From positions 3,456,001 through 3,520,000 of the forward strand of contig OZ255842.1 of the NCBI GenBank assembly GCA_965277805.1: 64,000 nucleotides of DNA. The letters are read 5' to 3'. The DNA comes from Candidatus Lustribacter sp. Lineage in GTDB: Bacteria > Vulcanimicrobiota > Vulcanimicrobiia > Vulcanimicrobiales > Vulcanimicrobiaceae. Shown here piece by piece: positions 15,101-32,215 of the stretch. Position 1 is the first letter of the stretch. Every line of letters begins with the position of its first letter. Under the pieces are notes generated by a model. That model worked only from the letters and a program-made list of their open reading frames with translations, was not told the origin of the DNA and did not search any database. The translations under genes were made by a program, and so were the position numbers.

Positions 15101-18100
15101 GCCGCCGCCGATCGACTGCGCCAGGATGCCGTCGGAATGGGCGCCCGTCGTCGTGAGGGCCGTCGCGGTGCTCGTGCCGCTGGTGACGTTGACCGCCGCC
15201 GCGCTGCCGCCGCCCGAGCCGTTTCCGCCGAAGGCCAAACCGATGTTGCCGCTGCCGGCCGTGATGCCGCCCGTGATCGCCATGCCGCCCGAACCGCCGC
15301 CGCCGCCGACCGATTCCGCAAAAATGCCGTTCGACTCATCGTCGAGGGTGCTGATGCTGTTGGTGCTGGTGACGCTGACCGCGCCGGCGTTGCCGCCGCC
15401 CGAGCCCGCGCCGCCCAGGCTGATGCCCGCGCCGTTGGCCGCCGTCAGCGCCGCTGCCACCGTGAAGCCGCCGTCGCCGCCGCCGCCGCCGACCGACTGC
15501 GCCTCGATGCCGTCGGAGTGCGCGCCGCCGGTCGAGATCAGGGCGCTGTTCGTCACGGTCACGGCGCCCGCGTTGCCGGCCGTACCGCCCGACCCGCCGA
15601 TGCCCATTGCGCCCGAGGTCTTGAGCGTGGCCGATGCCGCGATGCTGAACGCACCGTCGCCGCCGCCGCCGCCGATCGACTGCGCCATGATACCGGCCGA
15701 GTAATCGCCGAGCGTTCCGATGCCCGAATCGTTGGAGACCGTCACGGTCTTCGAATCGCCGCCCGTTCCACCGGTGCCGCCGATGCCGAGGTCGAGCGTT
15801 GCGCCGGTACCGGCCGAAGCCGCCGCGCCGAAGCCGCCCGCTCCGCCGCCGCCGCCGACCGACTGCGCGAGAATGCCGATGGAATTGAGGCCCGCAGTCG
15901 TGATGGTGGTCGTGCTGGTCGTCGTGCCGCTGTTCACGATCACGTCACCCGCGATGCCGCCGCTGCCGCCCGAGCCGCCGAGCGCGACCCGGAAACTGCT
16001 GCCGTCGCTGATGCCGCCGGCGACCGAGAACCCGCCGTTGCCGCCGCCGCCGCCGATCGACTGCGCTTCGATGCCGTGCGACCCGTCGAGAGCTGTTTGG
16101 ATCGAGGCCGTGTTGCTGACGGTGACGTCGCCCGCGCTGCCGCCGCCGCCGCCCGAACCGCCGAGCGTCAGGCCCGCCGATTGCGCGCCGTTCGAAATCG
16201 TGCCGGCGATAACGAAGCCGCCGTTGCCGCCGCCGCCGCCGATCGACTGCGCCGCGATGCCGACGCTCTGCATACCGGAGGTCGTGATGTTGCCGGAGTT
16301 GGTAACGGTGACGTCGTGGCCGTTGCTGGCCGCGCCGCCCGAGCCGCCGATCGCGACTTGGCCGGTGCGGCTGCCCGAGGCGATCGCCTGAATGGCGAAG
16401 CCGCCGTTACCGCCGCCGCCGCCCAGCGACTGCGCGAGGATGCCGTCGGAAATATCGTTGGTGGTGACGAGCATGCTCGAGTTCGTGACCGTGACGTTGC
16501 CCGAGTCGCCGCCGTTGCCGCCGGAGCCGCCCAAGCTGAAGCCGACCGCATACCCCGGCGTCGCACTGCCGGTGGCGACCAGCCCGCCGTTGCCGCCGCC
16601 GCCGCCGACCGATTGCGCCTCGATGCCGTTCGACGACGCGCCGGTCGTCATGATGAGCGCTCCCGTGCTCGTGACCGTGACGTCATCGGCGCCGCCGGCC
16701 GCGCCGCCGCTACGTCCGAGGCCGAGGCTGAGGGCGCTCGCCGCGCCGCCCGACGTCGTCCCGGCAAACTTGACCGTGATGCCGCCGTCACCGCCGCCGC
16801 CGCCGATCGATTGCGCCAAAATGCCGTTCGAGACGCTGCCCGTCGTGCCGATCGATCCGGTGCTCGTGACCGTGACCGTGCCGGCATTGCCGCCGGAGTC
16901 GGTACTGTTGCCGCCCATCAGGATGCCCATATCCGACTCGACGTCGCCGAGCACGCCGATACCGCCGTAGCCCCCGCCGCCGCCGATCGATTGCGCGAGG
17001 ATGCCGTCGGACTCATCACCGGTCGTCGTGATCTGCGAGAAGCTGCCGACCGTGACGGCCATGCTGTTGCCGCCGGCGCCGCCCGTGCCGAAGCCCATGC
17101 CGGCGCCGATGCCGGTCTTGGTGAGTTTGCCCTCGATGGCCATACCGGCGGCACCGCCGCCGCCGCCGATCGACTGCGCCGCCAGGCCCGCCGACTGATC
17201 GCCGGTCGTCGCGATCGTCGAATAGCTCTCGACGTCAACCGTGCCGCCGTCCTTGCCACCGCCGCCCGTCCCGCCTTCACTGAGGGGCACGACGCGCGTC
17301 GTCGCGAGGCCCGCCGCGACCGACATGCCGCCCGAGCCGCCGCCGCCGCCGATTGCCTGCGCGAGAATGCCGTCCGAGCCTTCGCCACCGGTGGTGATCG
17401 AGACGACACCGCCGGCCTGGCCGCTGTCGAGGATCACGTTGCCGGAATGCGCCCCGACGCCGCCCGCGCCGCCGAGTGAAATATCGGCGCTCGTGCCGTT
17501 GCTGACGCCGCCCGCTGCCGAAAAGCCGCCGTTACCGCCGCCGCCGCCGATCGATTGCGCCAGCAGGCCGACGCTCTGGTCGCCGCCGGTGCTGATCGAC
17601 TGCAAGCTGCTCAAGTCGACGTCGCCCGCGATCGCGCCGCCGCCGCCGCTGCCGCCCAGCGCGAGGGCGGCGCTCGATGCGTTCGAGACCGAACCCGAAA
17701 CCGCGAAACCGCCGTTACCGCCGCCGCCGCCGATCGACTGCGCCGCGATGCCCGCCGAAAACGCGTTGGTCGTTTGGACTTGGGTGTTCGCCGCAACCGT
17801 CACGTCGCCGGCCGCCCCGCCGAGCGCGCCGCTGCCGCCAAGCGTGACCGCGGCGTTGAAACCGCTCGACCCGGACGCGCCGACCGCGAAGCCGCCGTTG
17901 CCGCCGCCCCCGCCGATCGATTGCGCGAGGATCCCGTCGGCTTGCATGCCGCCGGTCACGATCGAATCGGCCACCGTCCCGTACCCGCTGATCACCGTGA
18001 CGTTGCCCGCATCGCTTGCGCCGCCGCCGCTGCCGCCCATCGTGACCGACGCGGCCTTGCCGGTGCTGCCGGCGCCCGCGACGCTGAAGCCGCCGTTGCC

Positions 18101-21100
18101 GCCGCCGCCGCCGATCGACTGCGCGAGGATGCCGTTGCTGAAATCGCCGGTGCCCGTATTGATGCCGGCGCCGGTGTTGGTCACGCTGACGTTGCCGGCC
18201 TTGGCCCCGCCGCCGCCCGAGCCGCCGAAGCTCAGCGCCGCGTCGCTGCCGTTCGCGAGCGTTCCGGCCACCGAGAAACCGCCGTTGCCGCCGCCGCCGC
18301 CGACCGATTGCGCCTCGATGCCGTTCGAGCTCGAACCGTTGGTGATAATCGTCGCGTCGCTCGTCACCGTGACGTCGTTGCCGGTGCTGCCCATGCCGCC
18401 GTTGCCGCCGAGGCTGACCGACGCGCCGGACCCGTTGCTCAGGTCGCCGGCCACGCTGAAGCCGCCGTTGCCGCCACCGCCCCCGAGCGATTGCGCGAGG
18501 ATACCATTGGAACTCGAACCGCCGGTCTGAATCGTCACCGCGGTCAGGCTGGTTACGCTCGCCGTGCCGGCTGCGCCGCCGGTGCCGCCCTTGCCGCCGA
18601 GCGAGATCGCCGCGCTCGTCCCGTTCGAGAGCGTTCCGGCCACGGAGAAACCGCCGTTACCGCCGCCGCCACCCAGCGACTGCGCGGCGATGCCGTCGGA
18701 CTCGTTGCCCATCGTCTGGATGTTGCCGGTGCTCGTGACCGCCACGTTACCCGATGCGCCCGCCGCGCCGCCCGTACCACCGGCGCTGATGCTGGCGGCG
18801 CTGCCGTTGGCGCCGGTTGCCGCGATGCTGAAACCGCCGTTGCCGCCGCCGCCGCCGATCGACTGTGCGAGAATGCCGTCGGACTGATCCAAGCGCGTGC
18901 TGATGTTCCCGACGCTGACGACCGTCACGGCGCCGGCCGTGGTGGAGGTGGCGCTGCCTCCGCTGCCGCCGAGGCTGAACGACGCCGAAGGAGCGTTGCT
19001 CGCGCCGCCGGCGATGCTGAAGCCGCCGTTACCGCCGCCTCCCGCGATCGATTGCGCCTGAATGCCGTCGGATTGGACGCCGCTCGTCGAGATGTCGCCG
19101 TAGTCGGTGACGCTGACCGCGCCCGACGACGCGCCGCCGCCGCCGCTTCCGCCGATGGAAAGGTTGATGCTGTTGCCGGCCGACAAGCCGCCCGCGACGC
19201 TGAAGCCGCCGTTGCCGCCGCCGCCGCCGATCGATTGCGCTTGGATCCCCGCCGCGCTGCTGCCGCCGGTCACGATGTCGACCGAACTCGTGGTCGAGCC
19301 GTTGGTGACGGTCACGGCGTCCGACGTGCCGCCGGCGGCGCCGCTGCCGCCCAGGCTGACGCCGATCGTGCGCCCGCTGCCCGAGATGTCGCCCACGACG
19401 CTGAAGCCGCCGTTGCCGCCGCCGCCGCCGACCGACTGCGCCTGGATGCCGACGGAACCGTTGCCGCCGGTGGTGATCGCCGTATTGCTGGTGACGGTGA
19501 CCATGCCTGCGGTGCCGCCGCTCGCGCCCGAACCGCCCAGCGCGACCGAAACGTTGGTGCCGTTGCCGATGCTGCCGCCGACGGCGAAGCCGCCGTTGCC
19601 GCCGCCGCCACCGATCGATTGCGCCTGGATGCCGGCCGAGCTGTTGCCGCCCGTGACGATCGCAGCGGCGCCGCCGTTGGCGCCTTGGCTTGCGACGGTG
19701 ACGTTCCCGGCCGTACCGCCGGCCGCGGCGCTGCCGCCGAGTGCGACCGACGCCGATGATCCGGTCGTCACGGTGCCGTCGACCGCGAAGCCGCCGTTGC
19801 CGCCGCCGCCGCCGATCGATTGCGCCTGAATGCCCGACGAGTCATCGCCGACCGTCATGATGATGCCGTCGTTGCCGGGCGCGGTGCTGGTCGTGGTGCT
19901 GTTGACGACGACGTTGCCGGCGTCGCCGCCCTGCGCACCGCCGCCGCCGAACGCCAATCCGGCTGCCGACCCGGTCGTCAGCGCGCCGTCGACAGCGAAG
20001 CCGCCGTTACCGCCGCCGCCGCCGATCGACTGCGCGAGAATGCCGGCCGAGTTGCTGTCGCCGGTCCCGATGTTGCCGGTGCTCGTCACCTTGACGAACT
20101 TGCCGTCGTCGCCCAAGCCGCCGTTGCCGGCAAATGCGACCGTGCCGGTCACGCCGGTCGTCAGAGCGCCGGCGACCGCGAAGCCGCCGTTGCCGCCGCC
20201 GCCGCCGATCGACTGCGCCGCGATACCATTCGATTCCACGCCGTCGGTCATGATCGAGCCGACGCTGGTGACCATGACCATACCGGCGTTCGAACCGGCG
20301 CCGCCCGTGCCGCCGAAGCTCGCGCCGAGGGCCGGACCGCCGGCGGCGACCGCGTCGACGCTGAAGCCGCCGTTGCCGCCGCCGCCGCCGATCGATTGGG
20401 CAAGGATGCCGTTCGAACGGTCGCCGTCGGTGATGATGTTGGAGATGACCGCCGAGCTGCCGCTGGTCACGAACACGTTGCCGGCGGTCGCGCCCGAGCC
20501 GCCTTTGCCGCCGAACGCGGCCGAGAGCGAACCGCTGCCGCTGAGCGAGCCCGTAATACTGAAGCCGCCGTTACCGCCGCCGCCGCCCAGCGATTGCGCG
20601 AGGATGCCGTTGGAATCGCTGCCGTCGGTCTCGATGCCGCCCAGGCTGTGCACCGTCACGGTCGAGGCGGTGCCGCCGTTGGAACCCGAACCGCCGAACG
20701 AAACCGACGCGGTGCCGCTGGTCGAGAGGCTGCCGGCGATCGCAAAGCCGCCGTTGCCGCCGCCGCCGCCGATCGATTGCGCCGCGATGCCGTCGGCATG
20801 CGAACCGTCAGTTTGGATCGTACCGGTGCTGGTCACGCTGACCGCCATGGCGTTGCCGCCGCCGCTGCCCGATCCGCCGAAACCCACCGAACCGGTGAGG
20901 CTCGTACCGGCAGAGGCCGCGATCGAGAAACCGCCGTTGCCGCCGCCGCCGCCGATCGATTGCGCTTGGATGCCGTCGGAGAAATCGCCGCTGCCGTCGG
21001 CGCCGGTATGGATGTTGGCCGCGCTGACGACCGTCACGGTGCCGGCGTCGGAACCGGTGCCGGCCTTGCCGCCGAAGCCGACCGCGATCGCCGGACCGCT

Positions 21101-24100
21101 GCCGGCCGATCCGGCCACGCTGAAGCCGCCGTCGCCGCCGCCGCCGCCGATCGACTGCGCTAAGATGCCGTCCGACCGCGAGCCGTCCGTCTGAATGATG
21201 GTGCCCGCCTCGGTAACCGAGACGTTGTTGGCGGCGCCACCGCCGGCGCCCTTACCGCCGAAGCCGAGACTCAACGCGGCGCCCGAACCGATGCTGCCGG
21301 CGATGCTGAAGCCGCCCGAACCGCCGCCGCCGCCGAGCGACTGCGCCTCGATGCCCGACGAGTCATCGCCGGTCGTGCCGATGCTGCCGGTGCTGCTGAC
21401 GGTCACCGTCGAGGCGGTGCCGCCCACCGAGCCGCTGCCGCCGAAGCTGAGGTTTGCGGTCGATCCCGCCGCCAGGCCGCCCGAGATCCCGAAGCCGCCG
21501 TCGCCGCCGCCGCCGCCGATCGACTGCGCCAAGATGCCGACGGAGTGCTCGCCGTCGGTCGTGATCTGTCCGGTACTGGCGACGAACACGGACAGGCCCG
21601 CTCCGCCGTCGCCGCCGCTGCCGCCGAAATTGACGTTGCCGCCCGCCGATAGCGTCGCCGAGGCCGCGACGCTGAAGCCGCCGTCGCCGCCGCTGCCGCC
21701 GATCGACTGGGCCCGAATGCCGTCGGAGTCGTCGTCCTGGCCGCTGCCCGTACCGGTTGCGATCGCGCCGTAGCTCTCCACGCTCACGGCAGCCGCATCC
21801 GAGCCGGCCGCTCCGGCGCCGCCGAAGCTCGCGCCGAGGGAGTAGCCGCCGCTCGCATTGGCCGCAACGCTGAAGCCGCCCGAGCCGCCGCCGCCGCCGA
21901 TGCTCAAGGCCGTGATGCCGTCCGACCGATCGCCCGACGTCGTAATGTTCGAGAGAACCGTATTGAGGTACGTGCCGGGGCCGGTCGATATCGTTCCGTT
22001 ATTGACGGTCACCGCCCCCGAGGTGGCGCCCGTTCCGCCCGCGCCGCCGAAGGACGCGCTCAGGCCGGCGTCGCCGGACGCTGTCCCGGCAATGCTGAAG
22101 CCGCCGCTGCCGCCGCCGCCGCCGACCGACTCCGCGTAGATACCCGATGAGTCATTGCCCAAGGTCGTGATGGAGCCGTAGGTGGCAACGGTGACCGCGC
22201 CGCCTTGCGCGCCGGTCCCGGCACCGCCGCCGAAGGTCAGGCTCGCCGATGCTCCGCCGCTGAGCGCACCCGCGGCGCTGAAGCCGCCGTTGCCGCCGCC
22301 GCCGCCGAGCGACTGCGCGAGGATGCCCGCCGAGTTGTCGCCGGCCGTGCCGATGTTGCCGACGCTGAACACCGAGACGCCCATGGCGACGCCGCCGCCC
22401 GACCCGTGTCCGCCGAAGCTCAGTGAACCGGACGCGTACGTGCTGGCGCTGCCGTCGATGCTGAAGCCGCCGTTACCGCCGCCGCCGCCGATCGACTGCG
22501 CGATGATCCCGCTCGAGGAGTTGTCGTCGGCGATGCCGTTGTCGACCAGCGCCGGAAGCGGGCCGCCCTCGAGCGACGTGGCGTACGGATTGTCGCCGGT
22601 ATAGATGTTGCTGTAGTTGGTGACCGTGACGGTACCGGCATTGCCGCCGGCCGCGCCGGAGCCGCCGAAGCTGCCGCTGATCGCGCCGTTCGCCACCGCG
22701 CCGGCCACGCTGAAGCCGCCGTTGCCGCCGCCGCCGCCGATCGATTGGGCGACGATGCCGGACGAACGCGAGCCGTCGGTCATGATCGTTCCCTCGAACG
22801 CCGTGCTGCCGTTGCCCGCGACGACGTTGCCGGCCGACGATCCCGTGCCGCCTGCACCGCCAAATGAAAGCGCTGCCGACGCGCCGGTGCTGAGGCCGCC
22901 GGCCACGCTGAACCCACCGTTTCCACCGGCGCCGCCGATGGATTGTGCAAGGATCGCGTCCGAATCGTCGCCGTAAGTGCCCATGTTGCCGACGTTGGTA
23001 GCGGTCACCGCCATGCCCTTACCGCCCGATGCGCCGCTGCCGCCCAGCGAGAGGCCGGCGCCGGCGTCGATGGTCAGGTTGCCGGCGATGCTGTAGCCGC
23101 CGTTGCCGCCGCCGCCGCCGATCGATTGCGCCTCGATGCCGTTGGCCTGCTCGCCCGCCGTGAAGATCGAACCGACGTTGGTGACGGTGACGATGCCGGC
23201 GTCGTCGCCGGAGCCGCCCTTACCGCCGATCGAGCCGGCAGCGCCGACCCCGAACGACGCGGATCCGGCGATGCTGAAGCCGCCCGAGCCGCCGCCGCCG
23301 CCGAGCGACTGCGCTTGAATGCCGTTGGAACTGTCGCCGTTGCCGGTGAACTTGCCGGTGGCCGGGTCGATGCCGGTCATGATGTTCGTGAAGCTCGTGA
23401 CCGTCACGTTGCCGGCGGTCGATCCGGTGCCGCCGCCGCCGCCGAGGGACGCGGCCAGCGACGCTTCACCCGAGCCGGCCGCGCCCACGCTGAAGCCGCC
23501 GTCGCCGCCGCCGCCGCCGATCGACTGCGCGAGGATACCGTCGGACCGCTGGCCCTCGGTGGCGATCATCGCTTCGCTGCCCGCGGTGCCGCTCGAAACG
23601 GTCACGGCACTACTAAATGAACCAGGACCGCCGGTGCCGCCGAACGAGGCGGCGAGTGCCGCACCCGCGCTCACCGCTGCCGAAATGCTGAAGCCGCCCT
23701 GACCGCCGCCGCCGCCGATCGATTGGGCGAGGATGCCGGCCGAGTCGTCGCCGGTCGTGATCACCGAGCCGGTGCTGCTAACGGTCACCGAGCTCGCCTG
23801 ATTACCCGTGCCGCCGGCGCCGGCGAAACTCAGGCTGCCGCCCGCCGCGGCCGCCAGCGAGCCGGCGACGGAGAATCCGCCGTTGCCGCCGCCGCCGCCG
23901 ATCGACTGGGCAGCGATGCCGTTGGCGCCCTCGCCGTTGGTCTTGACGGTGCCGTTGCTGTTCACCGTGACGTCGAGGCCCTTACCGCCGCCGCCGCCCG
24001 AACCGCCGAATCCGACTGCCGCGCCGGCCGTGGCCGAAAGATCGGCACCAACCGCGAAGCCGCCGTTGCCGCCGCCGCCGCCGATCGATTGCGCTAAAAT

Positions 24101-27046
24101 GCCGTCCGAGAAATTGCCCGAGCCGTCCTGGCCCGTCTCGACGTTGCCGTTGCTATAGACGTAGACGGAGCCCGCGTCGTTGCCCGAACCGCCCGCGCCG
24201 CCCATCGAAAGAGCGATGCTGGGACCGACCGAAGCCGCGCCGGCCACGCTGAACCCGCCGCTGCCGCCGCCGCCGCCGATCGACTGCGCGACGATGCCCG
24301 ACGCATACGCGCCGTTCGTCGTGATGTTCGCGGCCGAGCCGAGCCCGTTGTACACGGTGACGGACTGCGCGAATCCGCCGGCGGCGCCGCCGCCGCCGAT
24401 CGCAAACGACGCCGCGCTGCCGCCGCCGAGCGCCGCGCCGACGCTGAGCCCGCCGTTGCCGCCGCCGCCGCCCAGCGATTGGGCGAGGATGCCGTCCGAA
24501 TCGTCGCCGCGGGTCGTGATGCTGTTCGTGCTTTGAACGTAGACGTTATTTGAAGACGCGCCGCTGCCGCCGCTCCCGCCGACCGCGAGCGCCGCGCCCG
24601 ATCCGAACGAGAAGTTCCCGGCCACGCTCGCGCCGCCGTCGCCGCCGCCGCCGCCGATCGACTCCGCAACGATGCCCGAGGAGCGATTGCCGACCGTCGT
24701 GATCGCGCCGCCGCTGCTGAAAATCGTGACCGTGCTGGCCGTCTGGCCGCTGCCGCCCGATCCGCCGACGCCGACGGCCGCCGAGGCGCCCGCGCTGAAG
24801 TCGAGCGAGGCCGCCAGCCCGCCGGTCCCGCCGCCGCCCCCGACGGACTGCGCGAAGATGCCGTTCGAATCGTCACCCGTAGTGCCGATGCCGGCCGCGT
24901 TAAACACCGTGACCGATTGCCCGATGCCGCCCGCCGCTCCCGAACCGCCGTAGGCGAGGCCGGCCCCGACCGCCGAGATCGTGGCCGCAACGCTGAAGCC
25001 GCCGTTGCCGCCGCCGCCGCCGATCGATTGGGCGAGGATGCCGTTGGAGTCGGCGTTCGCGGTGTTGATTTGACCGCTGTTGTTAACGTAGACCGTGTTG
25101 CCGTCGCCGCCGTGCAGGCCGGATCCGCCGACCGCAAGTCCGCCCGCGGCGAGCCCGAGGCTGCCCGAAATCGCAAAGCCGCCCGAACCGCCGCCGCCGC
25201 CGATCGACTGCGCGAAGATGCCGTCGGACAACTGGCCGCTGGTGGAAATGGAATTACTGTTGATGACGTTGACCGTGCCGGAGTCGCCGCCGGCGCCGCC
25301 CGTCCCGCCGACGGAAATCGCGACGGCCGCCAAACCGACCGCAGCCGAGAAAGCGAAACCACCGTTGCCGCCGCCGCCGCCGACCGACTGCGCTTGGATG
25401 CCGCTCGAGCGGTCGCCGAACGTCTGGATGCTGGCCGAACCGGTCGTGTCGACGAACACGTTGCCGCCGACGCCGCCGGAACCGGCGTTGCCGCCGATCG
25501 CAATCGCGCCGCTAAACCCGGCGCTCGCGGCGCTTCCCCCATTGCCGCCGCCGCCGCCGACCGACTGCGCCAGAATCGCCGACGAATCGTTGGAACGGGT
25601 CTCGAGATTGCCGGAGTTCGTGACGTTGACGTTGCCGCCGTCGCCGCCTTCACCGCCGCCGCCGCCGACCGAGAACCAGCCGGTCGCGCTGCCGCCGTTG
25701 CCGCCGCCGCCGCCGACCGACTGTGCGAAAATAGCCTGAGCTCCGTACGTGGCCTGCTGGCCGTTGACGAACAGACTCGATCCCGTCGCCCAAGTCGTGA
25801 CGTTGGCGGAATTGGTGACGTTGACGGTGCCGGCGCCGCTCGTCGACGAGCCGGTGCCGCCGACCGCAAACGCGCCGCTGCCGTTGCCGCCGTCGCCGCC
25901 GCCGCCGCCGACCGACTGCGCGAAAATGCCCTTGGACGCCACGCCGTAGGTGACGATCGAACCTTGCGTGTTGACGACAACGTCGCCGCCCGCGCCGCCC
26001 GTTTGGGCCGCGCCGCCGAATCCGACCAAGCCGGAACCGCTGCCGCCGGAGCCGCCGCCGCCGCCGACCGATTGCGCCAAAATCCCGTACGAACCGTTGT
26101 TGGTCGTTTCGATGCTCGACCCGGCATCCATGATCGCCGTCGCGTTACCGCCCGAGCCGCCGTTGGCGCCGTTGCCGCCGAACGATGCGAGACCCGCAAC
26201 GCTGCCGCCGCTGCCGCCGAATCCGCCGACGCTCTGCACGAACATGCCGAAGGCGGAGACGCCCTCGGTCAAAATCGAACCGCCGGTCTGCAATTCGCCG
26301 GTGGCGCTGCCGCCAGACTGCGCGTTGCTGCCCGAACCGGCGCTTCCATAGAAGAGACCAAAGCCGCCGCCGCCGTTGCCGCCGCCGCCGCCGACCGACT
26401 CGATGAACATCCCGTGGGCGCCGTCGCCGTAGGTCTGGATGGCGGTCTGGACTTGGACGTTGATGCTGCCGCCGAGCCCGCCCGCCGCTCCGCCGCCGCC
26501 GTCGCCGACGAAGCCGTCACCATCGCCGCCGTTGCCGCCGACGCCGCCGTCGCTCGAGCCGAAAACGCCGTAGCCTTTCGTCCCGGTCGTCGTTATCCCG
26601 AGCAGGTTGCTCAAGTTGATCGTGGCCGTCAGCGAGCCGCCGTTGCCGCCCGATCCGCCGTCGGCACCGCCGCCGCCGAGATAGTACGTGCCGCCGCTGC
26701 CGCCGTTGCCGCCGTTGTCGAAGATCGCGAAACCGCTGCCCGACGACGTGAAAATTGCGGTGCCGGGATTGCCGCTGGAATAGTTGACCGGCGAGCCCGG
26801 CGATGCGCCGTTACCGCCGCCGCCGCCGCTGTCGGGCGAAACGAACAATGCGCCGTCGCGGCCGTTGCCGCCGTCGCCGCCGCTGTCGTTGATCGACTGC
26901 GCGCCGATGCATGAAATCGTGTAACCGTTCGGATTCGGCAGCGTCGAGCAGTCGGTTGGATTCGCTTGCGCAGCGCGCGGCGAACATGCTGCGATCAGCG
27001 TTGCAACGACGACCGCAACCGTTACCGCAAACGATTTATGTTTCAC
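3176..27046 (-). CDS. Giant (7956 aa) Gly-rich repeat autotransporter / adhesin
   Basis: Single 23.9-kb ORF with N-terminal signal peptide, >100 copies of a GIxAQS(I/V/L)GGGGGxGG repeat, and a ~290-aa C-terminal beta-barrel-like domain ending in ASINLEQRF (terminal Phe). Confidence 0.93.
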   Translation of the reverse strand: MKHKSFAVTVAVVVATLIAACSPRAAQANPTDCSTLPNPNGYTISCIGAQSINDSGGDGGNGRDGALFVSPDSGGGGGNGASPGSPVNYSSGNPGTAIFTSSGSGFAIFDNGGNGGSGGTYYLGGGGADGGSGGNGGSLTATINLSNLLGITTTGTKGYGVFGSSDGGVGGNGGDGDGFVGDGGGGAAGGLGGSINVQVQTAIQTYGDGAHGMFIESVGGGGGNGGGGFGLFYGSAGSGSNAQSGGSATGELQTGGSILTEGVSAFGMFVQSVGGFGGSGGSVAGLASFGGNGANGGSGGNATAIMDAGSSIETTNNGSYGILAQSVGGGGGSGGSGSGLVGFGGAAQTGGAGGDVVVNTQGSIVTYGVASKGIFAQSVGGGGGDGGNGSGAFAVGGTGSSTSGAGTVNVTNSANVTTWATGSSLFVNGQQATYGAQAIFAQSVGGGGGNGGSATGWFSVGGGGGEGGDGGNVNVTNSGNLETRSNDSSAILAQSVGGGGGNGGSAASAGFSGAIAIGGNAGSGGVGGNVFVDTTGSASIQTFGDRSSGIQAQSVGGGGGNGGFAFSAAVGLAAVAISVGGTGGAGGDSGTVNVINSNSISTSGQLSDGIFAQSIGGGGGSGGFAISGSLGLAAGGLAVGGSGLHGGDGNTVYVNNSGQINTANADSNGILAQSIGGGGGNGGFSVAATISAVGAGLAYGGSGAAGGIGQSVTVFNAAGIGTTGDDSNGIFAQSVGGGGGTGGLAASLDFSAGASAAVGVGGSGGSGQTASTVTIFSSGGAITTVGNRSSGIVAESIGGGGGDGGASVAGNFSFGSGAALAVGGSGGSGASSNNVYVQSTNSITTRGDDSDGILAQSLGGGGGNGGLSVGAALGGGSAASFAIGGGGAAGGFAQSVTVYNGLGSAANITTNGAYASGIVAQSIGGGGGSGGFSVAGAASVGPSIALSMGGAGGSGNDAGSVYVYSNGNVETGQDGSGNFSDGILAQSIGGGGGNGGFAVGADLSATAGAAVGFGGSGGGGGKGLDVTVNSNGTVKTNGEGANGIAAQSIGGGGGNGGFSVAGSLAAAAGGSLSFAGAGGTGNQASSVTVSSTGSVITTGDDSAGILAQSIGGGGGQGGFSISAAVSAGAALAASFGGTGGPGSFSSAVTVSSGTAGSEAMIATEGQRSDGILAQSIGGGGGDGGFSVGAAGSGEASLAASLGGGGGTGSTAGNVTVTSFTNIMTGIDPATGKFTGNGDSSNGIQAQSLGGGGGSGGFSIAGSASFGVGAAGSIGGKGGSGDDAGIVTVTNVGSIFTAGEQANGIEAQSIGGGGGNGGYSIAGNLTIDAGAGLSLGGSGASGGKGMAVTATNVGNMGTYGDDSDAILAQSIGGAGGNGGFSVAGGLSTGASAALSFGGAGGTGSSAGNVVAGNGSTAFEGTIMTDGSRSSGIVAQSIGGGGGNGGFSVAGAVANGAISGSFGGSGAAGGNAGTVTVTNYSNIYTGDNPYATSLEGGPLPALVDNGIADDNSSSGIIAQSIGGGGGNGGFSIDGSASTYASGSLSFGGHGSGGGVAMGVSVFSVGNIGTAGDNSAGILAQSLGGGGGNGGFSAAGALSGGASASLTFGGGAGTGAQGGAVTVATYGSITTLGNDSSGIYAESVGGGGGSGGFSIAGTASGDAGLSASFGGAGGTGATSGAVTVNNGTISTGPGTYLNTVLSNITTSGDRSDGITALSIGGGGGSGGFSVAANASGGYSLGASFGGAGAAGSDAAAVSVESYGAIATGTGSGQDDDSDGIRAQSIGGSGGDGGFSVAASATLSAGGNVNFGGSGGDGGAGLSVFVASTGQITTDGEHSVGILAQSIGGGGGDGGFGISGGLAAGSTANLSFGGSGSVGGTASTVTVSSTGSIGTTGDDSSGIEAQSLGGGGGSGGFSIAGSIGSGAALSLGFGGKGAGGGAANNVSVTEAGTIIQTDGSRSDGILAQSIGGGGGDGGFSVAGSAGSGPAIAVGFGGKAGTGSDAGTVTVVSAANIHTGADGSGDFSDGIQAQSIGGGGGNGGFSIAASAGTSLTGSVGFGGSGSGGGNAMAVSVTSTGTIQTDGSHADGIAAQSIGGGGGNGGFAIAGSLSTSGTASVSFGGSGSNGGTASTVTVHSLGGIETDGSDSNGILAQSLGGGGGNGGFSITGSLSGSGSLSAAFGGKGGSGATAGNVFVTSGSSAVISNIITDGDRSNGILAQSIGGGGGNGGFSVDAVAAGGPALGASFGGTGGAGSNAGMVMVTSVGSIMTDGVESNGIAAQSIGGGGGNGGFAVAGALTTGVTGTVAFAGNGGLGDDGKFVKVTSTGNIGTGDSNSAGILAQSIGGGGGNGGFAVDGALTTGSAAGLAFGGGGAQGGDAGNVVVNSTTTSTAPGNDGIIMTVGDDSSGIQAQSIGGGGGNGGFAVDGTVTTGSSASVALGGSAAAGGTAGNVTVASQGANGGAAAIVTGGNSSAGIQAQSIGGGGGNGGFAVGGSIGNGTNVSVALGGSGASGGTAGMVTVTSNTAITTGGNGSVGIQAQSVGGGGGNGGFSVVGDISGSGRTIGVSLGGSGAAGGTSDAVTVTNGSTTSSVDIVTGGSSAAGIQAQSIGGGGGNGGFSVAGGLSAGNSINLSIGGSGGGGASSGAVSVTDYGDISTSGVQSDGIQAQSIAGGGGNGGFSIAGGASNAPSASFSLGGSGGSATSTTAGAVTVVSVGNISTRLDQSDGILAQSIGGGGGNGGFSIAATGANGSAASISAGGTGGAAGASGNVAVTSTGNIQTMGNESDGIAAQSLGGGGGNGGFSVAGTLSNGTSAAISLGGKGGTGGAAGTASVTSLTAVTIQTGGSSSNGILAQSLGGGGGNGGFSVAGDLSNGSGASVSLGGNGGMGSTGNDVTVTSDATIITNGSSSNGIEAQSVGGGGGNGGFSVAGTLANGSDAALSFGGSGGGGAKAGNVSVTNTGAGINTGTGDFSNGILAQSIGGGGGNGGFSVAGAGSTGKAASVTMGGSGGGASDAGNVTVISGYGTVADSIVTGGMQADGILAQSIGGGGGNGGFAVGASGSSGFNAAVTLGGSGALGGAAGDVTVAANTQVQTTNAFSAGIAAQSIGGGGGNGGFAVSGSVSNASSAALALGGSGGGGAIAGDVDLSSLQSISTGGDQSVGLLAQSIGGGGGNGGFSAAGGVSNGTSADISLGGAGGVGAHSGNVILDSGQAGGVVSITTGGEGSDGILAQAIGGGGGSGGMSVAAGLATTRVVPLSEGGTGGGGKDGGTVDVESYSTIATTGDQSAGLAAQSIGGGGGAAGMAIEGKLTKTGIGAGMGFGTGGAGGNSMAVTVGSFSQITTTGDESDGILAQSIGGGGGYGGIGVLGDVESDMGILMGGNSTDSGGNAGTVTVTSTGSIGTTGSVSNGILAQSIGGGGGDGGITVKFAGTTSGGAASALSLGLGRSGGAAGGADDVTVTSTGALIMTTGASSNGIEAQSVGGGGGNGGLVATGSATPGYAVGFSLGGSGGNGGDSGNVTVTNSSMLVTTNDISDGILAQSLGGGGGNGGFAIQAIASGSRTGQVAIGGSGGAASNGHDVTVTNSGNITTSGMQSVGIAAQSIGGGGGNGGFVIAGTISNGAQSAGLTLGGSGGGGGSAGDVTVSNTASIQTALDGSHGIEAQSIGGGGGNGGFSVAGGISDGSSFRVALGGSGGSGGIAGDVIVNSGTTTSTTTITTAGLNSIGILAQSVGGGGGAGGFGAAASAGTGATLDLGIGGTGGTGGDSKTVTVSNDSGIGTLGDYSAGIMAQSIGGGGGDGAFSIAASATLKTSGAMGIGGSGGTAGNAGAVTVTNSALISTGGAHSDGIEAQSVGGGGGDGGFTVAAALTAANGAGISLGGAGSGGGNAGAVSVTSTNSISTLDDESNGIFAESVGGGGGSGGMAITGGITAGSGNIGLAFGGNGSGGGSAAAVNVTSGTSTATALTTTGAHSDGILAQSIGGGGGDGGMSVQGGISSGASIGFSMGGSGAGGGVAGTVNVTDSSAVATTGDFSAGIAAQSIGGGGGSGGLSISGNASNKVTGSFAIGGGGGTASNGEAVGVTVSANIVTTGEHADGISAQSIGGGGGDGGFSVAGTISTGTGGAGLTMAGSGAGGGVGGTVAVNDIASVQTNGNDSHGIFAQSIGGGGGAGGMAVTGGISAGSGQIGLAFGGAGGAGGNASAVSVTTGQNVTGTEILTGTSTTGTHSDGILAQSVGGGGGDAGMAISGGIGVGTQAAFSLGGSGGAGGNAGTVTVVNNALIATQQEYSHGIAAQSIGGGGGDGGMAITGTVGSGLAADIGVGGSGGTAGNASAVSVTGTSQITTAGDHSDGILAQSVGGGGGDGGMAVSGSISKAANTAFTLGGSGGGGGVAGNVAVTQLGSIQTAGDTSDGILAQSLGGGGGSGGFALDGTFSGTGSLSLAFGGKGGTGGDAGTVTVLNSGATPTTGEILTGGLHADGILAQSIGGGGGDGGLSVAGTMDNGTGIAFSMGGSGGIAGAGKAVAVTNQSSITTTGDLAAAIAAQSIGGGGGSGGLAISGSVGSPSAADAASVDVAIGGGGGAGTNAGNVTVSNTGQITTGGTDSYGVFAQSAGGGGGSGGLSGTLAAATGSDAKNVSVSIGGTGGSGGAAGNVTVANNGEIQTTGVAGTAVYAQSVGGGGGDGGYGLAVDLGASTGAVDLSVALGGHGGSGGVAGDVTASNSGIISTTANNAEGIFAQSLGGGGGNGGMSVSAGVSVSTTGKQLGISLGGSGGTGNNAGNVLVDNTGTIVTTGDKASAVDAESIGGGGGNGGMSIAGAIGGTNLTVALGGSGGDAGNAGTVTVTNAGDISTGNALTGTGTQSYGIFAQSLGGGGGNGGLAFAGSAGVGGNAQLSISVGGSGAGGGTGNAVSVSDSGNIFTSGAQGNGIFAQSIGGGGGNGGMAFGASLLAGGDNVALSVAVGGTGGSGNTSSTVTVEHDSGVISTTGDQAIGILAQSIGGGGGTGGLSGTLAASAGADAKNIGISVGGSGGSGAASGDVTVNNDGQVYTNGLAASAIVAQSIGGGGGDGGYGISAQLGVSTGATDLSVALGGSGGTGGTAGDVGVTNTGTLSTYGDNANGIQAQSIGGGGGTGGMAISAAISVSPTGKQLGVTLGGNGGSGNDAGNVSVTNTGTIVTVGNTASGIDAESLGGGGGDGGMAISGAIGGTNLTIALGGSGGDAGNAGNVSVTNTGDIGTGSTTSGTQSYGIFAQSLGGGGGNGGMAFSGSAGAGSDASAEISVALGGTGGGAGTAGNVDVNDNGNIVTSGDGAHGIFAQSLGGGGGNGGFTFAGSLLAGSAGGANTTMTLAFGGSGGAGNTSGTVTVLHQGGIQTSGDGAYGIDAESIGGGGGNGGFSGALAAGTGAESKSISATFGGAGGAGSASSDVSVTNTGDIITTGSAATGVDALSLGGGGGDGGFGLAASIGPSSGSTNLSFAFGGSGGGGGTSGNVSVNNTGGISTQGNNALGILAQSIGGGGGDGGMSIAADASVVTSARQLSLAFGGSGGTGNDSGTVGVTNSGTIVTQGDNAAAIDAESIGGGGGRGGMAIAGALGGMNLTLAFGGSGGDAGNAGAVTVNNTGDIGTGNAANGTGLDSYGIFAESLGGGGGNGGASFSGAASAGSDQVQASLALGGAAGGGGTAGDVGVTDNGTIVTSGAGAHAIFAQSLGGGGGNGGMSFAGDASLGGANIALTIAIGGGGGAGNTSGNVSVTHGGDIATSGQGAEGVLAQSIGGGGGNGGFSGTLAAGTGADAKNVAITVGGAGGSGSASGNVTVGNTGNIVTTGQAATGVDAESIGGGGGNAGFGLAMALGTSSGSTNVSLALGGKGGSAGTAGDVNVTNSGTISTTGDNALGVLAESIGGGGGNGGFSVAADITAAASSKQLGVSIGGAGGTGNDAGTVGVTNAGTIVTTGNAAAAIAAESLGGGGGNGGMAISGSLVGSNINLALGGSGAGAGNAGNVNVSNAGNIETGNATANSGTNSYGVFAQSLGGGGGNGGLSIGADAGNGSAQIGLSIGGSGGAAGTGGDVTVADSGVIITNGTDAHGIFAQSVGGGGGNGGAGFAASAGTSNANALDIALGGGGGAGTNSGNVTVTHDTGDIDTLGQGANGIYAQSLGGGGGTGGFSGTLAAGTGASTKHVAIDIGGTGGDGGAAGNVSVSNTSNVVTTGSAANGIVAESQGGGGGDGGFALAVDLSNGAGATNASMSFGGNGGSGGSAGTVTVNNTGIVSTSTDNSTGIFAQSLGGGGGNGGFAVAAGISTSQTAKQLALSLGGSGGTGNDASGVTVTNSGTVVTTGDNAIGISAQSQGGGGGNGGLAVSGALGGMNIALGLGGSGGDAGNAGNVSVTNTGDVGTGDATNGTGTNSYGIFAESLGGGGGNGGLAISADAGSSTDAKAEVAISVGGTGAAGGTGGDVNVDDSGNVVTSGNGAHAIFAQSIGGGGGNGGGSVSGSVAKTTTDVNTVALSLGGSGGTGNTGGDVTVTHDTGGISTSGDGAYGIDAQSVGGGGGTGGFAATLAAGTGTDTKHVAVALGGTGGTGGAAGDVTVQNDGEVYTSGAASTGIYAQSLGGGGGDAGFALGVAIGPTMGAVNVSVALGGTGGTGGVGGNVNVTNTGNVITNTDNAEGINAESIGGGGGNGGVSVTADVSNNAANKNLSLSLGGSGGTGNNAGNVNVNNTGAVSTVGDNAAGIDAESVGGGGGRGGLSVAAGISGMNMSVALGGSGGGAGNGGDVTVNNSGDVLTGSYDPTTDVITGTKSYGIEATSIGGGGGNGGMSFAAGAGSGSNKAQAEIGVSVGGSGGAGGTGGNVAVNADGNVLTIGAEAHGIFAQSIGGGGGNGGFSFAGSSLRNTDKGGANVSVAMAVGGGGGTGNDGGTVTVTHDTGQIVTIGDGAMGIFAQSIGGGGGNGGGSRAFTQLSDAKKCDAGSTTCGTQNWNLAASIGGSGAGASNGGAVTVTNGGQISTSGGDAADIFAQSVGGGGGTGGDGNNGLIGPALNALVGITGVSVPSSDGSRRSEQTVGGAQTEAATTPAPATQSVQQSVYQNLQLNVGGSGGSSGNGADVNVTNSGALFATGDGAQAIFAQSVGGGGGVGGAGSTGVKGGIGIGGSGGSSGNGGDVAVTNTGMITTGGAAGYGVFAQSIGGGGGAAGNINRGLGKLDLGSGIAVGNTGGGGGNGGKVTVNNTGDIVTAGAGAEGIFAQSIGGGGGVAGSSGNSLTATSAVAALALAGSAGAAGAGGDVNVVETGNITTSGANADGIFAQSVGGQGKGGNVNVTVIGSVVALGTGSDGVVAQSTGGTVAATQSVATNVRTVQGSRVGINNTTVTPQDASATSNSGNVTVTITDGTTIQAGPGAVGVRLVGGANNMLINDGTIMTSDGLNGTAVSDTDGNNTIQNNGYLVGSLALGTGKSDLTNTKGYVAGTTLGLGTGTFTNLGQFSVGGTSNVGVTTLTGSFVQFGGDSLVDLDLSHKIADQLNLNAVASIGGNIDLTLLNIPTALPGTYKFDIVTAQGGLTAPNVVLNAPVSAIATYALSTVNNTDLRLTWTINYSPNFGLDGDSLGYSRSMFGNYLAAIQNAGSNTAFGNLISSIFAIPDGATLANLYSHISPGSLAPIEFTTLTSSQQFANRMMSCGYIASSCEWGSLDSFALNQSVTANTVGVGSLGAGFNYGSEQAIGRGWSLGGGIQYEQHSMTLNGGVASASGDLLQGGLFVGHRTAHGTSVNAGVTYGWEDDSTQRNVNYPDPSIVSLGRLQSSVIGTHLRLAHEYDRSTTAFTPYVDLSATRINVMNDLEHGNAGFLTANLAGHGDTFTAGQAGINIDPRAGIGNTGFTPSLRLGMTQSLGNPQTTVAGSLIGAPAGVQNFELPSKFDKTAFDVAPSLSTNQRPGQMNVRLSGDYRVSGRSQGLTASINLEQRF
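5030..26600 (-). repeat. Coding tandem repeat array, ~62-65 aa units (AQSIGGGGG repeat)
   Basis: Recurrent gccgccgccgccgatcga(t/c)tgcgc on the plus strand every ~185-195 bp; about 110-115 units estimated from the period, not counted exactly. Confidence 0.95.
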
Positions 27047-30000
27047 GGCGTCACGACGATGTTGATCGGCAACGTATGCGCGACGCCGCTCGGTCCGGTT
27101 GCAACGAGGCTGATGTTATACGTGCCCTGTTGCGTGTTGCCCGACGGTCCCGACGACGTTCCGGGCACGAGCGTACCGGCAATGACCGTGCCCGGCGCAA
27201 TTGCCGACGGCGTCACGACGCCGGCCGGCAGCTGATTCGTCGAGACCGCGCCGACTTGCCCCGTACCGGCGACGATGTCGCCCGTGCCGTTTTGCAGATT
27301 CGGTGTGCCTTGACCGGGGCCGGGCGTTCCGCCGTTGCCGCCGGTTGCCGGCGTCGGCGTCGGGAGCGACGGACCGCTGCTGCCGAAACCATTACCGCTG
27401 CCGACACCGGGCAACGTGCTTCCGCCACCACCGCCGCCGCACGCCGCCAATACGGCGACGCTCAAGATCGCTGCGCCCATCGCAACTTTGCGATTGCGGC
27501 GCCACAAGAATGCGAACAGCGTGAAGATGCCGCCGGCAATCGGAAGCGCGGCATGGCGAATCGCGCGTGCCATCGGCGTGACGGAACCGCTGTTCGATCC
27601 CGTCGTCGTCAGCGTCACGTTCACGCTCACGGGCGTCGTACCGGAAACCGTGACCGGCGATGACGTGCACACGGCTCCCGTCGGCAGTCCGGAACACGTG
27701 ACCGTTACCGTACCGTTGAATGAAGACGCGCCCGTCAACGTGACCGGAATCGTCATGCTCTGTCCGGCGCCCAGCGTTTGCTGGTTCGCGATCGTCGAAC
27801 CGATGGCGAAATCCGTGACGTTGCCGTTGGTGACGTTGAACGTAACACCCGACGACATCGACGATTGATTTTCGGAATCGCCACCGTAATTTGCGGTGAT
27901 CGTATGCGATCCGGCAGCTAGCGACGTGGTGGTCAACGTTGCGCGCGCGTGCCCGTCGAGCGACGCCGTGCCGATCGTCGTGCCGCCGTCCTTATATGTA
28001 ACGGTGCCGGTCGGGACATCGGGGACGCTGCCGGAGATCGCCGCAGTGAACGTTACCGGCGATCCGAGTGCAGCGCTGCTCGACGTCGCCGAAAGCGCCG
28101 TCGTCGTTGCGAACTGTGCAACCACGAACCCGACGATCGCTGAAGTGCTCGCACCATCATTGCTGTCGCCGCCGTACGTCGCGGTCAAATTGTGCGTGCC
28201 CGCTCCGCTGAACTGCGTGGTAATCGCTGCCGAGCCGCTGGCGAGCGTTTGCGTCGAGCCGATCTGCGTGCCGCCGTCGAAAAACTTGACGGTGCCTCCA
28301 TTGGGAGGCGATGAGCCCGTAACCGTCGCCGTTAGCACGACGTTCTGGGTCGGCGCAGCGGACGACGGTGCAACGCTCAATCCGGTCGAGCTCAAGCTCG
28401 TGCCGACGTTCTCGATCACGGATCCCTGAGCGGCCGTATTGTTCGTGTCACCGCTATACGCGGCGGTAATCGTGTACTGACCCGTGTTGAGGGTCGACAG
28501 CGACACGCTGGCCGAGTTGCCCGAGAGCGCCGGCGTCCCGAGCGGCGTTCCGCCGGGATTTTTCGTGAACGCAACCGTTCCCGTAGGCGACGCGCCGGTA
28601 CTCGTCACCGTCGCGGTGAAGGTGACGTTCGTGAACGGCGTCGTCGGGTTCGGGACCGCAACAACGTTCGTCGTTGCCGTCGCTTTCGAAGCGGTGAAGG
28701 TCGCAGTCGCCGTTGACCCGCCGTCTGCGCCACTATACGTTGCAACGATCGTGTGCGACGTGCCGGACAGATTGCTCACCGTCACCGATGCTTGGCCGCC
28801 CGAGAGGGCCGGGTTTCCGATGCCGCTGCTGTTGTCGGTGAACTGTACGTTGCCGGTCGGCGTCGAGCCGTCCGAAGCGGTGACGACGGCGGTGTAGGTC
28901 GGATTCGTTCCGAGGAACGGCGTCGCCGGCGAAATCGTCAGTGCGGTCGTCGTCGACGCGTTGCCGACGACCACGGTCTGCGCCGATGACCCCGAGCCGT
29001 TGAAACTCGTCGTCGCAGCGTAGGTCGCGGTGATGCTGTGACTGCCGGTCGGCGTCGCGGTCCAATTGTAGGTCGCTTGCCCGGCGCCGTTGACCGGTCC
29101 GGTACCCAGCGTCGTCGCGCCGTCGGAGAACGTCACCGTTCCGGTCGTCACGGGTGTCGTCGTCCCACTTATGGAGACCGTGGCCGTCAGCAGGTCCGGG
29201 GAGTTCAACCCGGGCGCCGTCGTTGCTGCGGCGAGCGTCGTCGCCGTATTGGCGGGCGTGATGGTGAACGCGCCCATCGTGCCGTGCGATGCGGCGAAGT
29301 TGATCGAACTCGAATAGCAGGCGGTGATCGTGTGCGAACCCGCGCCGAGTTGCGTCGTGACCAGCGTCGCCGTTCCGTTGGCGAGCGGCGCATTTCCAAG
29401 TACGTTCGACGAGCAATTGCTCGAGCCGTCGGCGAACGCAACGCTGCCGCCGGGGACGCCCGCCGATGACGTCACGCTCGCCGTGAGCGAAACGTTGGAA
29501 CCGGCCGTCGTCGTCGGAGGCGGCGTGCCGGCCGTCGTCGTGGTCGCCGCCTGGTTGATGGTCACGGTGAATGGCGACGCGGCGCTGGACGCGGAAAACT
29601 GCGAGACCATCGGCGGCACGTACGTCGCCGTGATCGAGTGCGTCCCGCCGCCGAGTGCGGTCGTCGCTACCGAAGCGCTGCCGGCGCTAAGCGGGCCCGA
29701 TGCGATGACCGTGACATTCGGACTCGTGCCTTCAGTAAAGTTGACGGTGCCGCTCGGCGTGCCGCCCGAGCTCGTCACGGTCGACGAGAGCGTCACGCTG
29801 CTTCCGAACGTCTGCGTTGTCGGATTCGCGCTGCCGGTGGTCGTGGTGCCCGTTCCAACCGTCACGTTGATCGTGGTCGCAAACACGTACGGCGAGCCGT
29901 CGGAGTATTGGAACGCAATTGCGTGAACGCCGGCTTGCGAAATGCCGGTCGTCGTGAACGTCATGACGCCGCCGGCTCCCACCGCGACACCGGTCGAGAG

Positions 30001-30615
30001 CGTCGTGCTGGTGAGGTTGTCGAAAATCGAAATGTTTCCGGTGGCCACGGCGGCGCCGGTTGCGGGCGACGTCGCGTGACACGTCAACGTTACGCTTTGC
30101 GACGGCGCGATCGTCGAGGATGACGCCGAACATGCGATGTTCACCGGCATGTCGACCGTATAGCTGATCGACGTGGAGCTGGCGGCGTTGTTCGCGTCGC
30201 CGGCATACGACGCCGTGATCGTGTGCGCTTCGGAGATCAGCGTCGTGGGCGGATTCGATGCGCTCGGAGCCGGCTGCGTGCCGGCCGACAAACTCGTTGT
30301 CGCGGGCGTCGTGAAGACGCCGCTGGCGACCGCGCCCGACCCGAGCGTCGTCGACGTCGTCGTGTCGGTAATCGTCGTCGTGGCCGTTCCGGTAACGACG
30401 ACGCCGGTCGACGTGACCTTGGTCGTCGCGGTGAACTTGACCGACGTGCCGTAGCCGTCGGGCGATCCCGGAGTGGCGGTGAGCGTCGTGGTGGTGGGGA
30501 CCGCCGCTGCCGAAGCGATTGCCGTCTGCGAGAGGCACGCTAGGGTGAGCGCAAACAAAACCCTGCATAGAGTTTCGCAAAACCGCGTAAGCGATTGCGT
30601 CGAAACCAAGAACAC
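27043..30615 (-). CDS. Secreted Ig-like domain (Big_3) repeat protein with C-terminal membrane hairpin and lipobox
   Basis: Signal peptide; about nine ~90-aa repeats (VTxTATV...PTGxVxFxDG...GxHxITAxYxGD); tail TM-RRNRK-hydrophobic-LAAC-GGGGGG; stop overlaps the GTG start of the autotransporter (GTGA). Confidence 0.9.
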   Translation of the reverse strand: MFLVSTQSLTRFCETLCRVLFALTLACLSQTAIASAAAVPTTTTLTATPGSPDGYGTSVKFTATTKVTSTGVVVTGTATTTITDTTTSTTLGSGAVASGVFTTPATTSLSAGTQPAPSASNPPTTLISEAHTITASYAGDANNAASSTSISYTVDMPVNIACSASSSTIAPSQSVTLTCHATSPATGAAVATGNISIFDNLTSTTLSTGVAVGAGGVMTFTTTGISQAGVHAIAFQYSDGSPYVFATTINVTVGTGTTTTGSANPTTQTFGSSVTLSSTVTSSGGTPSGTVNFTEGTSPNVTVIASGPLSAGSASVATTALGGGTHSITATYVPPMVSQFSASSAASPFTVTINQAATTTTAGTPPPTTTAGSNVSLTASVTSSAGVPGGSVAFADGSSNCSSNVLGNAPLANGTATLVTTQLGAGSHTITACYSSSINFAASHGTMGAFTITPANTATTLAAATTAPGLNSPDLLTATVSISGTTTPVTTGTVTFSDGATTLGTGPVNGAGQATYNWTATPTGSHSITATYAATTSFNGSGSSAQTVVVGNASTTTALTISPATPFLGTNPTYTAVVTASDGSTPTGNVQFTDNSSGIGNPALSGGQASVTVSNLSGTSHTIVATYSGADGGSTATATFTASKATATTNVVAVPNPTTPFTNVTFTATVTSTGASPTGTVAFTKNPGGTPLGTPALSGNSASVSLSTLNTGQYTITAAYSGDTNNTAAQGSVIENVGTSLSSTGLSVAPSSAAPTQNVVLTATVTGSSPPNGGTVKFFDGGTQIGSTQTLASGSAAITTQFSGAGTHNLTATYGGDSNDGASTSAIVGFVVAQFATTTALSATSSSAALGSPVTFTAAISGSVPDVPTGTVTYKDGGTTIGTASLDGHARATLTTTSLAAGSHTITANYGGDSENQSSMSSGVTFNVTNGNVTDFAIGSTIANQQTLGAGQSMTIPVTLTGASSFNGTVTVTCSGLPTGAVCTSSPVTVSGTTPVSVNVTLTTTGSNSGSVTPMARAIRHAALPIAGGIFTLFAFLWRRNRKVAMGAAILSVAVLAACGGGGGGSTLPGVGSGNGFGSSGPSLPTPTPATGGNGGTPGPGQGTPNLQNGTGDIVAGTGQVGAVSTNQLPAGVVTPSAIAPGTVIAGTLVPGTSSGPSGNTQQGTYNISLVATGPSGVAHTLPINIVVTP

Positions 30616-32121: not shown

Positions 32122-32215
32122 GCATTTCCCTCCGGCAAACTGCGGGTAGCTTCCGGAGGAGGGAATTTTCACCCGCCGGAACGTTTCAGGCTCGGAGTCT
32201 TTAGGAGGCAGCACC

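Follow-up and report, generated by a model that had tools for sequence, protein, structure and literature searches.

A probable long-tethered lipo-invert-like anchor inserted into the last Ig-like domain of an exported Eremiobacterota repeat protein

The window analysed here, a stretch of 64,000 nucleotides (contig OZ255842.1, positions 3,456,001 to 3,520,000) from the soil Eremiobacterota bacterium Candidatus Lustribacter sp. (own genome, G000, 5.53 Mb and 95% complete), encodes an exported protein of 1190 amino acids (aa) built of immunoglobulin (Ig)-like repeats. It raises the question of why such a protein should carry what reads as a lipoprotein signal near its C-terminus. Lipoprotein signals are expected at the N-terminus, and the lipobox Cys here is residue 1059 of 1190. 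Our answer is that the tail is probably a divergent, long-tethered form of the lipo-invert anchor, in which a hairpin of two hydrophobic helices sits in the E-F loop of the last Ig-like domain and the second helix is a genuine type II signal.

Eight stretches of the protein match the Pfam model Big_3_5 (PF16640, 371 bits), so that the count of about ten Ig-like domains in the original prediction was a fair one, and its quotation of the tail agrees letter for letter with the translation of the last 176 residues (27046-27573). The N-termini of the orthologues likewise show a hydrophobic segment followed by A-x-A. Behind the repeats come half of an Ig-like domain, a spacer, helix 1 (opened by the motif R-x-A-[LI]-P-x-[AG]-G, conserved in the ortholog alignment), the basic loop RRNRK, helix 2 with the lipobox, a Gly-rich tether and two final strands, the C-terminus reading GTYNISLVATGPSGVAHTLPINIVVTP (Table 1). 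The lipoprotein-type signal reads VAMGAAILSVAVLAAC and then GGGGGG, or, divided into n-region, h-region and lipobox, RRNRK-VAMGAAILSVAV-LAAC; helix 2 matches the type II pattern of a basic n-region, a hydrophobic h-region and a lipobox of the form [LVI][ASTVI][GAS]C. The Cys codon lies at 27439-27441, and the mature tail beyond the cleavage site would be 132 aa long, with 25% G, 14% T, 12% P and no K, R or E; lacking K and R, it would withstand trypsin.

Helix 2 is probably a working lipoprotein signal, to judge from its likeness to other signals in this and related genomes. In its own genome 136 candidate lipoprotein signals were defined by regular expression; Gly is the commonest +1 residue among them (43/136), and 37/136 have at least three Gly among the six residues after Cys, for example ...AVLAACGGGGGGGTASLP. 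The processing enzymes LspA (117.5 bits), Lgt (198.6 bits) and Lnt (255.1 bits) are each present above cut-off, as is Omp85/BamA. LolA was not found in the own genome and LolCE scored below cut-off, and the lipid is therefore assumed to stay in the cytoplasmic membrane; on the same grounds we set aside the idea that the lipidated tail, sorted by Lol, bridges the inner and outer membranes. Lgt and LspA act on lipoprotein signals whatever lies upstream, and would be expected to do so on this tail. Since the protein opens with what reads as a Sec-type signal and its two helices are joined by the RRNRK loop, the positive-inside rule would put the Cys on the outer side of the membrane, so that the topology assumed by the original prediction holds on this reasoning.

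The tail is conserved in every element and rare in distribution. A regular expression for helix, basic cluster, helix and lipobox lying more than 150 aa inside a frame, run over all open frames of at least 150 aa in the own genome, gave six matches. This tail is the only one of them to combine an exported repeat protein with a run of Gly behind the Cys; the remaining five resemble polytopic membrane proteins. That scan found no other similar architecture and tblastn no other match at E<1, so that no paralogue of the tail was found in the own genome. A word-indexed search with residues 935-1190 against 5.8 billion proteins returned five further full-length proteins at 100% query coverage (94, 85, 62, 55 and 54% identity over the C-terminal 261 aa); a sixth match, P0009, was set apart as the canonical tail of another family. 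In 5/5 full-length orthologues the frame and every tail element are intact, without stop or frameshift, and the Cys, the Ala before it, the six Gly and the T-L-P that follows are invariant. Three partial sequences from the search of representatives likewise read A-C-GGGG, and in all nine family sequences that span it the arrangement is free of stops and frameshifts. The Cys, on whose conservation the original prediction had been staked, is thus kept in 9/9 family sequences that cover the site, and in all of the canonical tails described below. Over the 176 tail codons, a 93%-identical relative of the same genus differs by 14 synonymous and 3 non-synonymous changes, so that the frame is under purifying selection all through the apparent linker.

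A profile of the tail run against 1.84 billion representatives gave eight matches at E<=1e-3, seven of them family members or their fragments; the eighth, P0015, was rejected, being a lipoprotein signal and linker without relation to the family. Among 61 relatives' genomes the full tail occurs in two (the own genome and G003), and 14 others match in the lipoprotein-signal part only, the helix 2 stretch there matching N-terminal lipoprotein signals. The sole genome-contig match (L034, 94% identity) is titled Candidatus Eremiobacteraeota MAG (metagenome-assembled genome), and every orthologue forms a cluster by itself, from one contig. The long-tether variant is rare. Scans of metagenome contigs with the ortholog alignment and with P0005 found no relative, a search of the ESM Atlas with the mature tail gave no usable match, and Pfam and NCBIfam, run on the tail alone, gave only a 13.6-bit match to the SslE signal peptide. 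No free-standing homologue of the tail was found in the own genome, in 401 phylum genomes, where only low-complexity or signal-peptide matches appeared, or among the 1.84 billion representatives. One metagenomic sequence, P0010 (332 aa), carries the tail from RAIRHAALPIAG on, after about 160 residues that by eye resemble a cytoplasmic enzyme of the acyl-CoA-synthetase type; it has no signal peptide or half-domain, and probably reflects a contig chimera or is what remains of a rearrangement.

The original prediction took the signal to be possibly novel. That view gives way, since the architecture is already modelled in NCBIfam as NF058595 ('invert_tail', the lipo-invert putative C-terminal anchoring domain; 113 positions, 37-bit cut-off), though the present copy scores under the cut-off. 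Using the P0009 tail as query we gathered 115 canonical tails, 108 of which passed a filter and 7 of which stood outside it; the Cys is invariant in 115/115, and +1 is Gly in 105/108. A profile built from their last 190 residues is co-linear with our tail through half-domain, helix 1, basic loop, helix 2 and C-GGG (58-78 bits, positions 5-154/161). The last 36 aa are in register with canonical positions 154-188 (final GTpaGTYtltVtat...h...ltV), at 11-15 bits a weak match on its own. By architecture and insertion point the tail is a lipo-invert-like variant; by the NCBI cut-off it is not a member.

An AlphaFold2 (AF2) model of the last 261 aa, made with a six-row alignment, has strands at model residues 7-74 in the N-terminal part (predicted local distance difference test, pLDDT, 57-72), helices at 98-110 and 116-127 matching both hydrophobic segments, a tether predicted to be disordered (pLDDT 28-36), and terminal strands at 235-244 and 250-260 (pLDDT 71-77). 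In a fold search with VIA-align against 48,161 chains, model range 3-261 matched single beta-sandwich domains of about 100-113 residues, the top match being 8jmw_A (Z 12.0, root-mean-square deviation (rmsd) 2.3, 104 residues aligned, chain 589-701) and the second 1eut_A (Z 11.9, rmsd 2.1, 97 aligned). Because 97-104 aligned residues need both parts, the 72 residues of the N-part and the last ~27 residues would share one sandwich. When the last 47 aa were docked to the N-part as separate chains, the interaction prediction score from aligned errors (ipSAE) was 0.53 and that of the best control 0.00, with contact agreement between runs of at least 86% and partner pLDDT of at least 61. The mark for this test was passed by 116/157 solved complexes and 2/215 mismatches, and at or below 0.60 stood 18/157 complexes together with both passing mismatches; the docking used a home-made alignment, so that these calibration counts are only rough, and the two parts of a single domain often pass such a test through their similarity. 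The end of the tail and the preceding half-domain are accordingly predicted to form one split Ig-like domain. The model, the fold search and the weakly supportive docking all fit the earlier suggestion that the terminal strands supply what the Ig fold before them lacks. The polyprotein proposed with it, of two autonomous products, is not supported: a free-standing counterpart of the tail is missing from the searches above, and with its last ~27 residues joining the sandwich of the preceding 72 the protein would not be a polyprotein of two independent units.

The tether is, by alignment, the best-conserved part of the protein, with 57-85% identity to the orthologues, whereas the Ig repeats reach 42-80% and the hairpin 43-79%, although low complexity may inflate the figure of the tether somewhat. 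About 85 of its conserved residues are extra, being absent from canonical tails, and these probably have a function of their own, such as partner binding or spacing.

The architecture, the conservation, the predicted geometry of the split domain and the presence of the enzymes were computed, and from them we infer topology, lipidation, cleavage, strand complementation after the cut and the fate of the hairpin. On the mechanism that we propose, the Ig stalk of ~1000 aa would be exported by its N-terminal Sec signal until helix 1 halted transfer and left RRNRK in the cytoplasm, and helix 2 would then restart export of the last 132 residues. Cys1059 would receive diacylglycerol from Lgt, LspA would cut before it and Lnt would add a third acyl chain, and the last two strands would enter the preceding five-strand half-domain. 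In this way a lipidated strand-donor peptide would keep the stalk on the outer surface of the cytoplasmic membrane, either in addition to the hairpin or, after further proteolysis, instead of it.

Several points weigh against this reading. After the LspA cut the stalk would still be joined covalently to the hairpin, so that the lipid looks redundant unless there is a second cut. The two helices, at 17 and 15 residues, are on the short side for a hairpin that is to be stable, and a tether of 101 aa against a spacer of 15 aa on the other arm is without obvious geometric rationale. Taken as a whole, the AF2 model is of poor quality (mean pLDDT 49.6), and the docking of the tail end onto the N-part was graded as weak support. 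The NF058595 model reached 20.4 bits on the tail (positions 2-85 of 113) in a six-frame search of the own genome, and hmmscan reported nothing at E<=10 for the protein or four orthologues, with the positive control P0009 at 92.8 bits; a pair of adjacent lipoprotein genes (G000:C1:3443433-3443744) scores 24 bits on the same model across a TGA stop. As this pair beats the real tail, we take sub-threshold scores on the model to be uninformative. Other sub-threshold matches in the genome and the phylum were rejected as ordinary N-terminal lipoprotein signals, and the model matched above cut-off in 0/201 Eremiobacterota genomes. Literature listings and the opening lines of abstracts yielded no paper on lipo-invert, NF058595 or an internal lipobox of this kind. 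We note that the adjacent pair, which lies about 12 kilobases before the start of the window, consists of an Ig-like C-terminus, a TGA and the LAAC-type signal of the next gene, and could illustrate how a fusion of this sort arises.

Among the alternatives is a plain hairpin: the two helices would hold the protein in the cytoplasmic membrane with the chain uncut, the Cys would be unmodified or lipidated without cleavage, and helix 2 would resemble a signal merely in order to start export of the tail. A hairpin is enough for anchoring, both of its arms stay on one domain in the AF2 model, and no published data on processing of such tails appeared in the same listings and abstract openings. A mere export helix, however, would have no need of an invariant Cys that is nearly always preceded by G, A or S and followed by a G-run (9/9 here, 115/115 canonical). 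Its 15-residue h-region is also signal-like rather than transmembrane-like, and the element is indistinguishable from the lipoprotein signals of its own genome, on which Lgt and LspA would act regardless of upstream context. We therefore consider the plain hairpin possible but unlikely.

A second alternative accepts the LspA cut and adds the excision of the hairpin, a second protease (rhomboid, site-2 or signal-peptide peptidase) cutting at or before helix 1, near R-x-A-L-P-x-A-G, and leaving the stalk held only by the lipidated strand-donor peptide, which would make it a true lipid anchor at the C-terminus. This would account for the need of a lipid, and helix 1 does carry at its outer end a conserved motif containing Pro and Gly; many canonical tails have a comparable A-R-[SG]-x-L-P-P behind their last strand, and 61/115 fit one of two loose regular expressions. 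Site-2 proteases in Firmicutes cut the remnants of lipoprotein signal peptides, which favours the same view, and the own genome has two rhomboid genes. Rhomboids occur, however, in 14/14 control genomes, which makes their presence little telling, and the motif is loose. A search of the own genome for an exosortase found none, and the neighbouring genes, which are for transport and oxidoreduction, include no dedicated protease gene. We regard the excised hairpin as distinctly unlikely. A more far-reaching version is a C-terminal lipid anchor resembling glycosylphosphatidylinositol (GPI) but made by the ordinary lipoprotein pathway: both helices would be removed, the last Ig domain would consist of two chains with the lipidated strand-donor peptide as sole anchor, and the tether, grown in this Eremiobacterota lineage into a conserved and uncharged stretch of 100 aa, might act as a dock or spacer for the coupled 7956-aa lipoprotein-autotransporter encoded immediately downstream. 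This is speculative, and we would give it only a slender chance.

The remaining alternative, two genes read as one through fusion of a small lipoprotein gene (by loss of its neighbour's stop codon or by misassembly) or through an internal start just before RRNRK, is very improbable and largely refuted: a TTG codon (Leu1037) directly before W-RRNRK would indeed yield a perfect lipoprotein precursor, and adjacent lipoprotein genes are common in the own genome, but the orthologues have no stop or frameshift, the residue aligned with Leu1037 is L, L, L, F, M and M in six rows (ortholog DNA being read for the closest relative only), the start is not conserved because the Phe of P0006 cannot be encoded by ATG, GTG or TTG, no Shine-Dalgarno-like sequence is seen upstream by eye, the free-standing homologue is missing as described above, and the tail folds only in its two strands, which depend on the half-domain before the hairpin. 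Frames of 196 aa that were matched in two phylum genomes are of low complexity, and the one inspected is unrelated.

Were the long-tethered lipo-invert reading true, it would amount to a C-terminal lipid anchor made by Lgt and LspA on an internal signal, with the pieces joined by beta-strand complementation, an anchoring route on which the same listings and abstract openings gave no paper. The tail design is now seen in a second phylum, Eremiobacterota, beyond the Acidobacteria tails. The length of the tether is evidently not fixed (131 against about 44 aa), and a tether can itself be strongly constrained. Because the NCBI model misses such variants, the lipo-invert family is wider than its cut-off shows. 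A 260-aa C-terminal fragment would make a compact test substrate.

The gene downstream is translationally coupled, its GTG start overlapping the TGA stop of the Ig gene (GTGA). Its 7956-aa product has a lipoprotein signal of its own (MKHKSFAVTVAVVVATLIAAC), is 29% Gly, contains QSIGGGGG 49 times, with a repeat spacing of about 60-66 aa or multiples, and ends in ...INLEQRF. Scanned in 2000-aa pieces it gave no Pfam match, and PF03797 (Autotransporter beta-domain, 69.4 bits) appeared only when the last 500 aa were scanned alone. The close relative G003 (G003:C9:336000-355900) has the same gene order, with the giant gene broken into many frames and the Ig-protein orthologue out of frame over its first ~115 residues; these breaks are either assembly indels or decay. 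Upstream, 30940-40053 holds two Peripla_BP_6 binding proteins, two luciferase-like monooxygenases, a Rieske/LigXa-like oxygenase and a GFO/IDH/MocA oxidoreductase, which looks like a catabolic cluster with no relation to the tail.

Table 1. The Ig-repeat gene, the parts of its product and the coupled gene, with positions in the window.
Feature	Position	Strand	Basis
1190-aa exported Ig-repeat protein gene	27043..30615	minus	Open reading frame list and translation; stop codon 27043-27045; orthologues P0004-P0008
N-terminal Sec-type signal peptide, residues 1-36, ending ...TAIASA ahead of AAV	30508..30615	minus	Read from the sequence
N-part of the last, split Ig-like domain (strands A-E, residues 935-1006)	27598..27813	minus	AF2 strands; positions 5-90 of the canonical-tail profile
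Spacer SNSGSVTPMARAIRH, residues 1007-1021, from half-domain to helix 1	27553..27597	minus	Sequence and alignment
Helix 1 AALPIAGGIFTLFAFLW, residues 1022-1038, presumed stop-transfer	27502..27552	minus	Sequence, alignment, AF2 helix
Basic loop RRNRK, presumed cytoplasmic	27487..27501	minus	R25 and R26 of the tail invariant in 5/5 aligned tails
Helix 2, equivalent of a lipoprotein-signal h-region, and lipobox L-A-A-C	27439..27486	minus	Cys and preceding Ala invariant
Tether, 101 aa: GGGGGG and a 95-aa G/T/P-rich conserved stretch	27136..27438	minus	Predicted disorder, composition
Last 30 residues TQQGTYNISLVATGPSGVAHTLPINIVVTP, final strands F and G of the split Ig-like domain	27046..27135	minus	AF2, fold search, profile register
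7956-aa glycine-rich autotransporter gene, downstream and translationally coupled	3176..27046	minus	PF03797

Among known systems, the tripartite C-terminal sorting signals (PEP-CTERM with exosortase, GlyGly-CTERM with rhombosortase, LPXTG with sortase) resemble this tail in that their last folded domain is followed by a short motif, a hydrophobic helix and a basic cluster. In those systems this array forms the extreme C-terminus, whereas here 152 residues lie beyond the basic cluster. None of the NCBIfam sorting-signal models matched the protein, and membership in the PEP-CTERM/exosortase system failed both on this distance and on the exosortase PF09721, which was not found in the own genome. 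Classical lipoproteins, processed by Lgt, LspA and Lnt, are alike in the basic n-region, the 15-residue h-region, L-A-A-C and the Gly run from +1; they differ in that the signal here lies 1030 residues inside an exported protein, after a presumed stop-transfer helix, and in that the mature part would be only a tether plus two strands of a domain belonging to another segment. Lipo-invert tails of NF058595 offer the fullest likeness. Both lie C-terminally on a large exported protein (Big_3_5 passengers occur on some canonical members too), both run in the same order from half Ig-like domain through helix, basic cluster, lipobox helix and G-rich start to the final strands, and in both these strands read GT(P/Q)(A/Q)GTY...V-A-T...H...V, at an identical insertion point in the domain. 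The differences concern the arms and the host. Helix 1 here opens at the ALP motif, without the canonical Pro-rich arm of 20-30 aa, and the tether is G/T/P-rich, conserved and free of K, R and E, in contrast to the short poly-Pro run of canonical tails. From the Cys to the end there are 131 aa here and 130-132 in intact orthologues, compared with 38-55 in canonical tails (n=115; 38-54 with a median of 44 in the filtered 108, 39-55 in the other 7). Finally, our protein belongs to Eremiobacterota, whereas the canonical proteins that carry a taxon name are Acidobacteriota (6/6).

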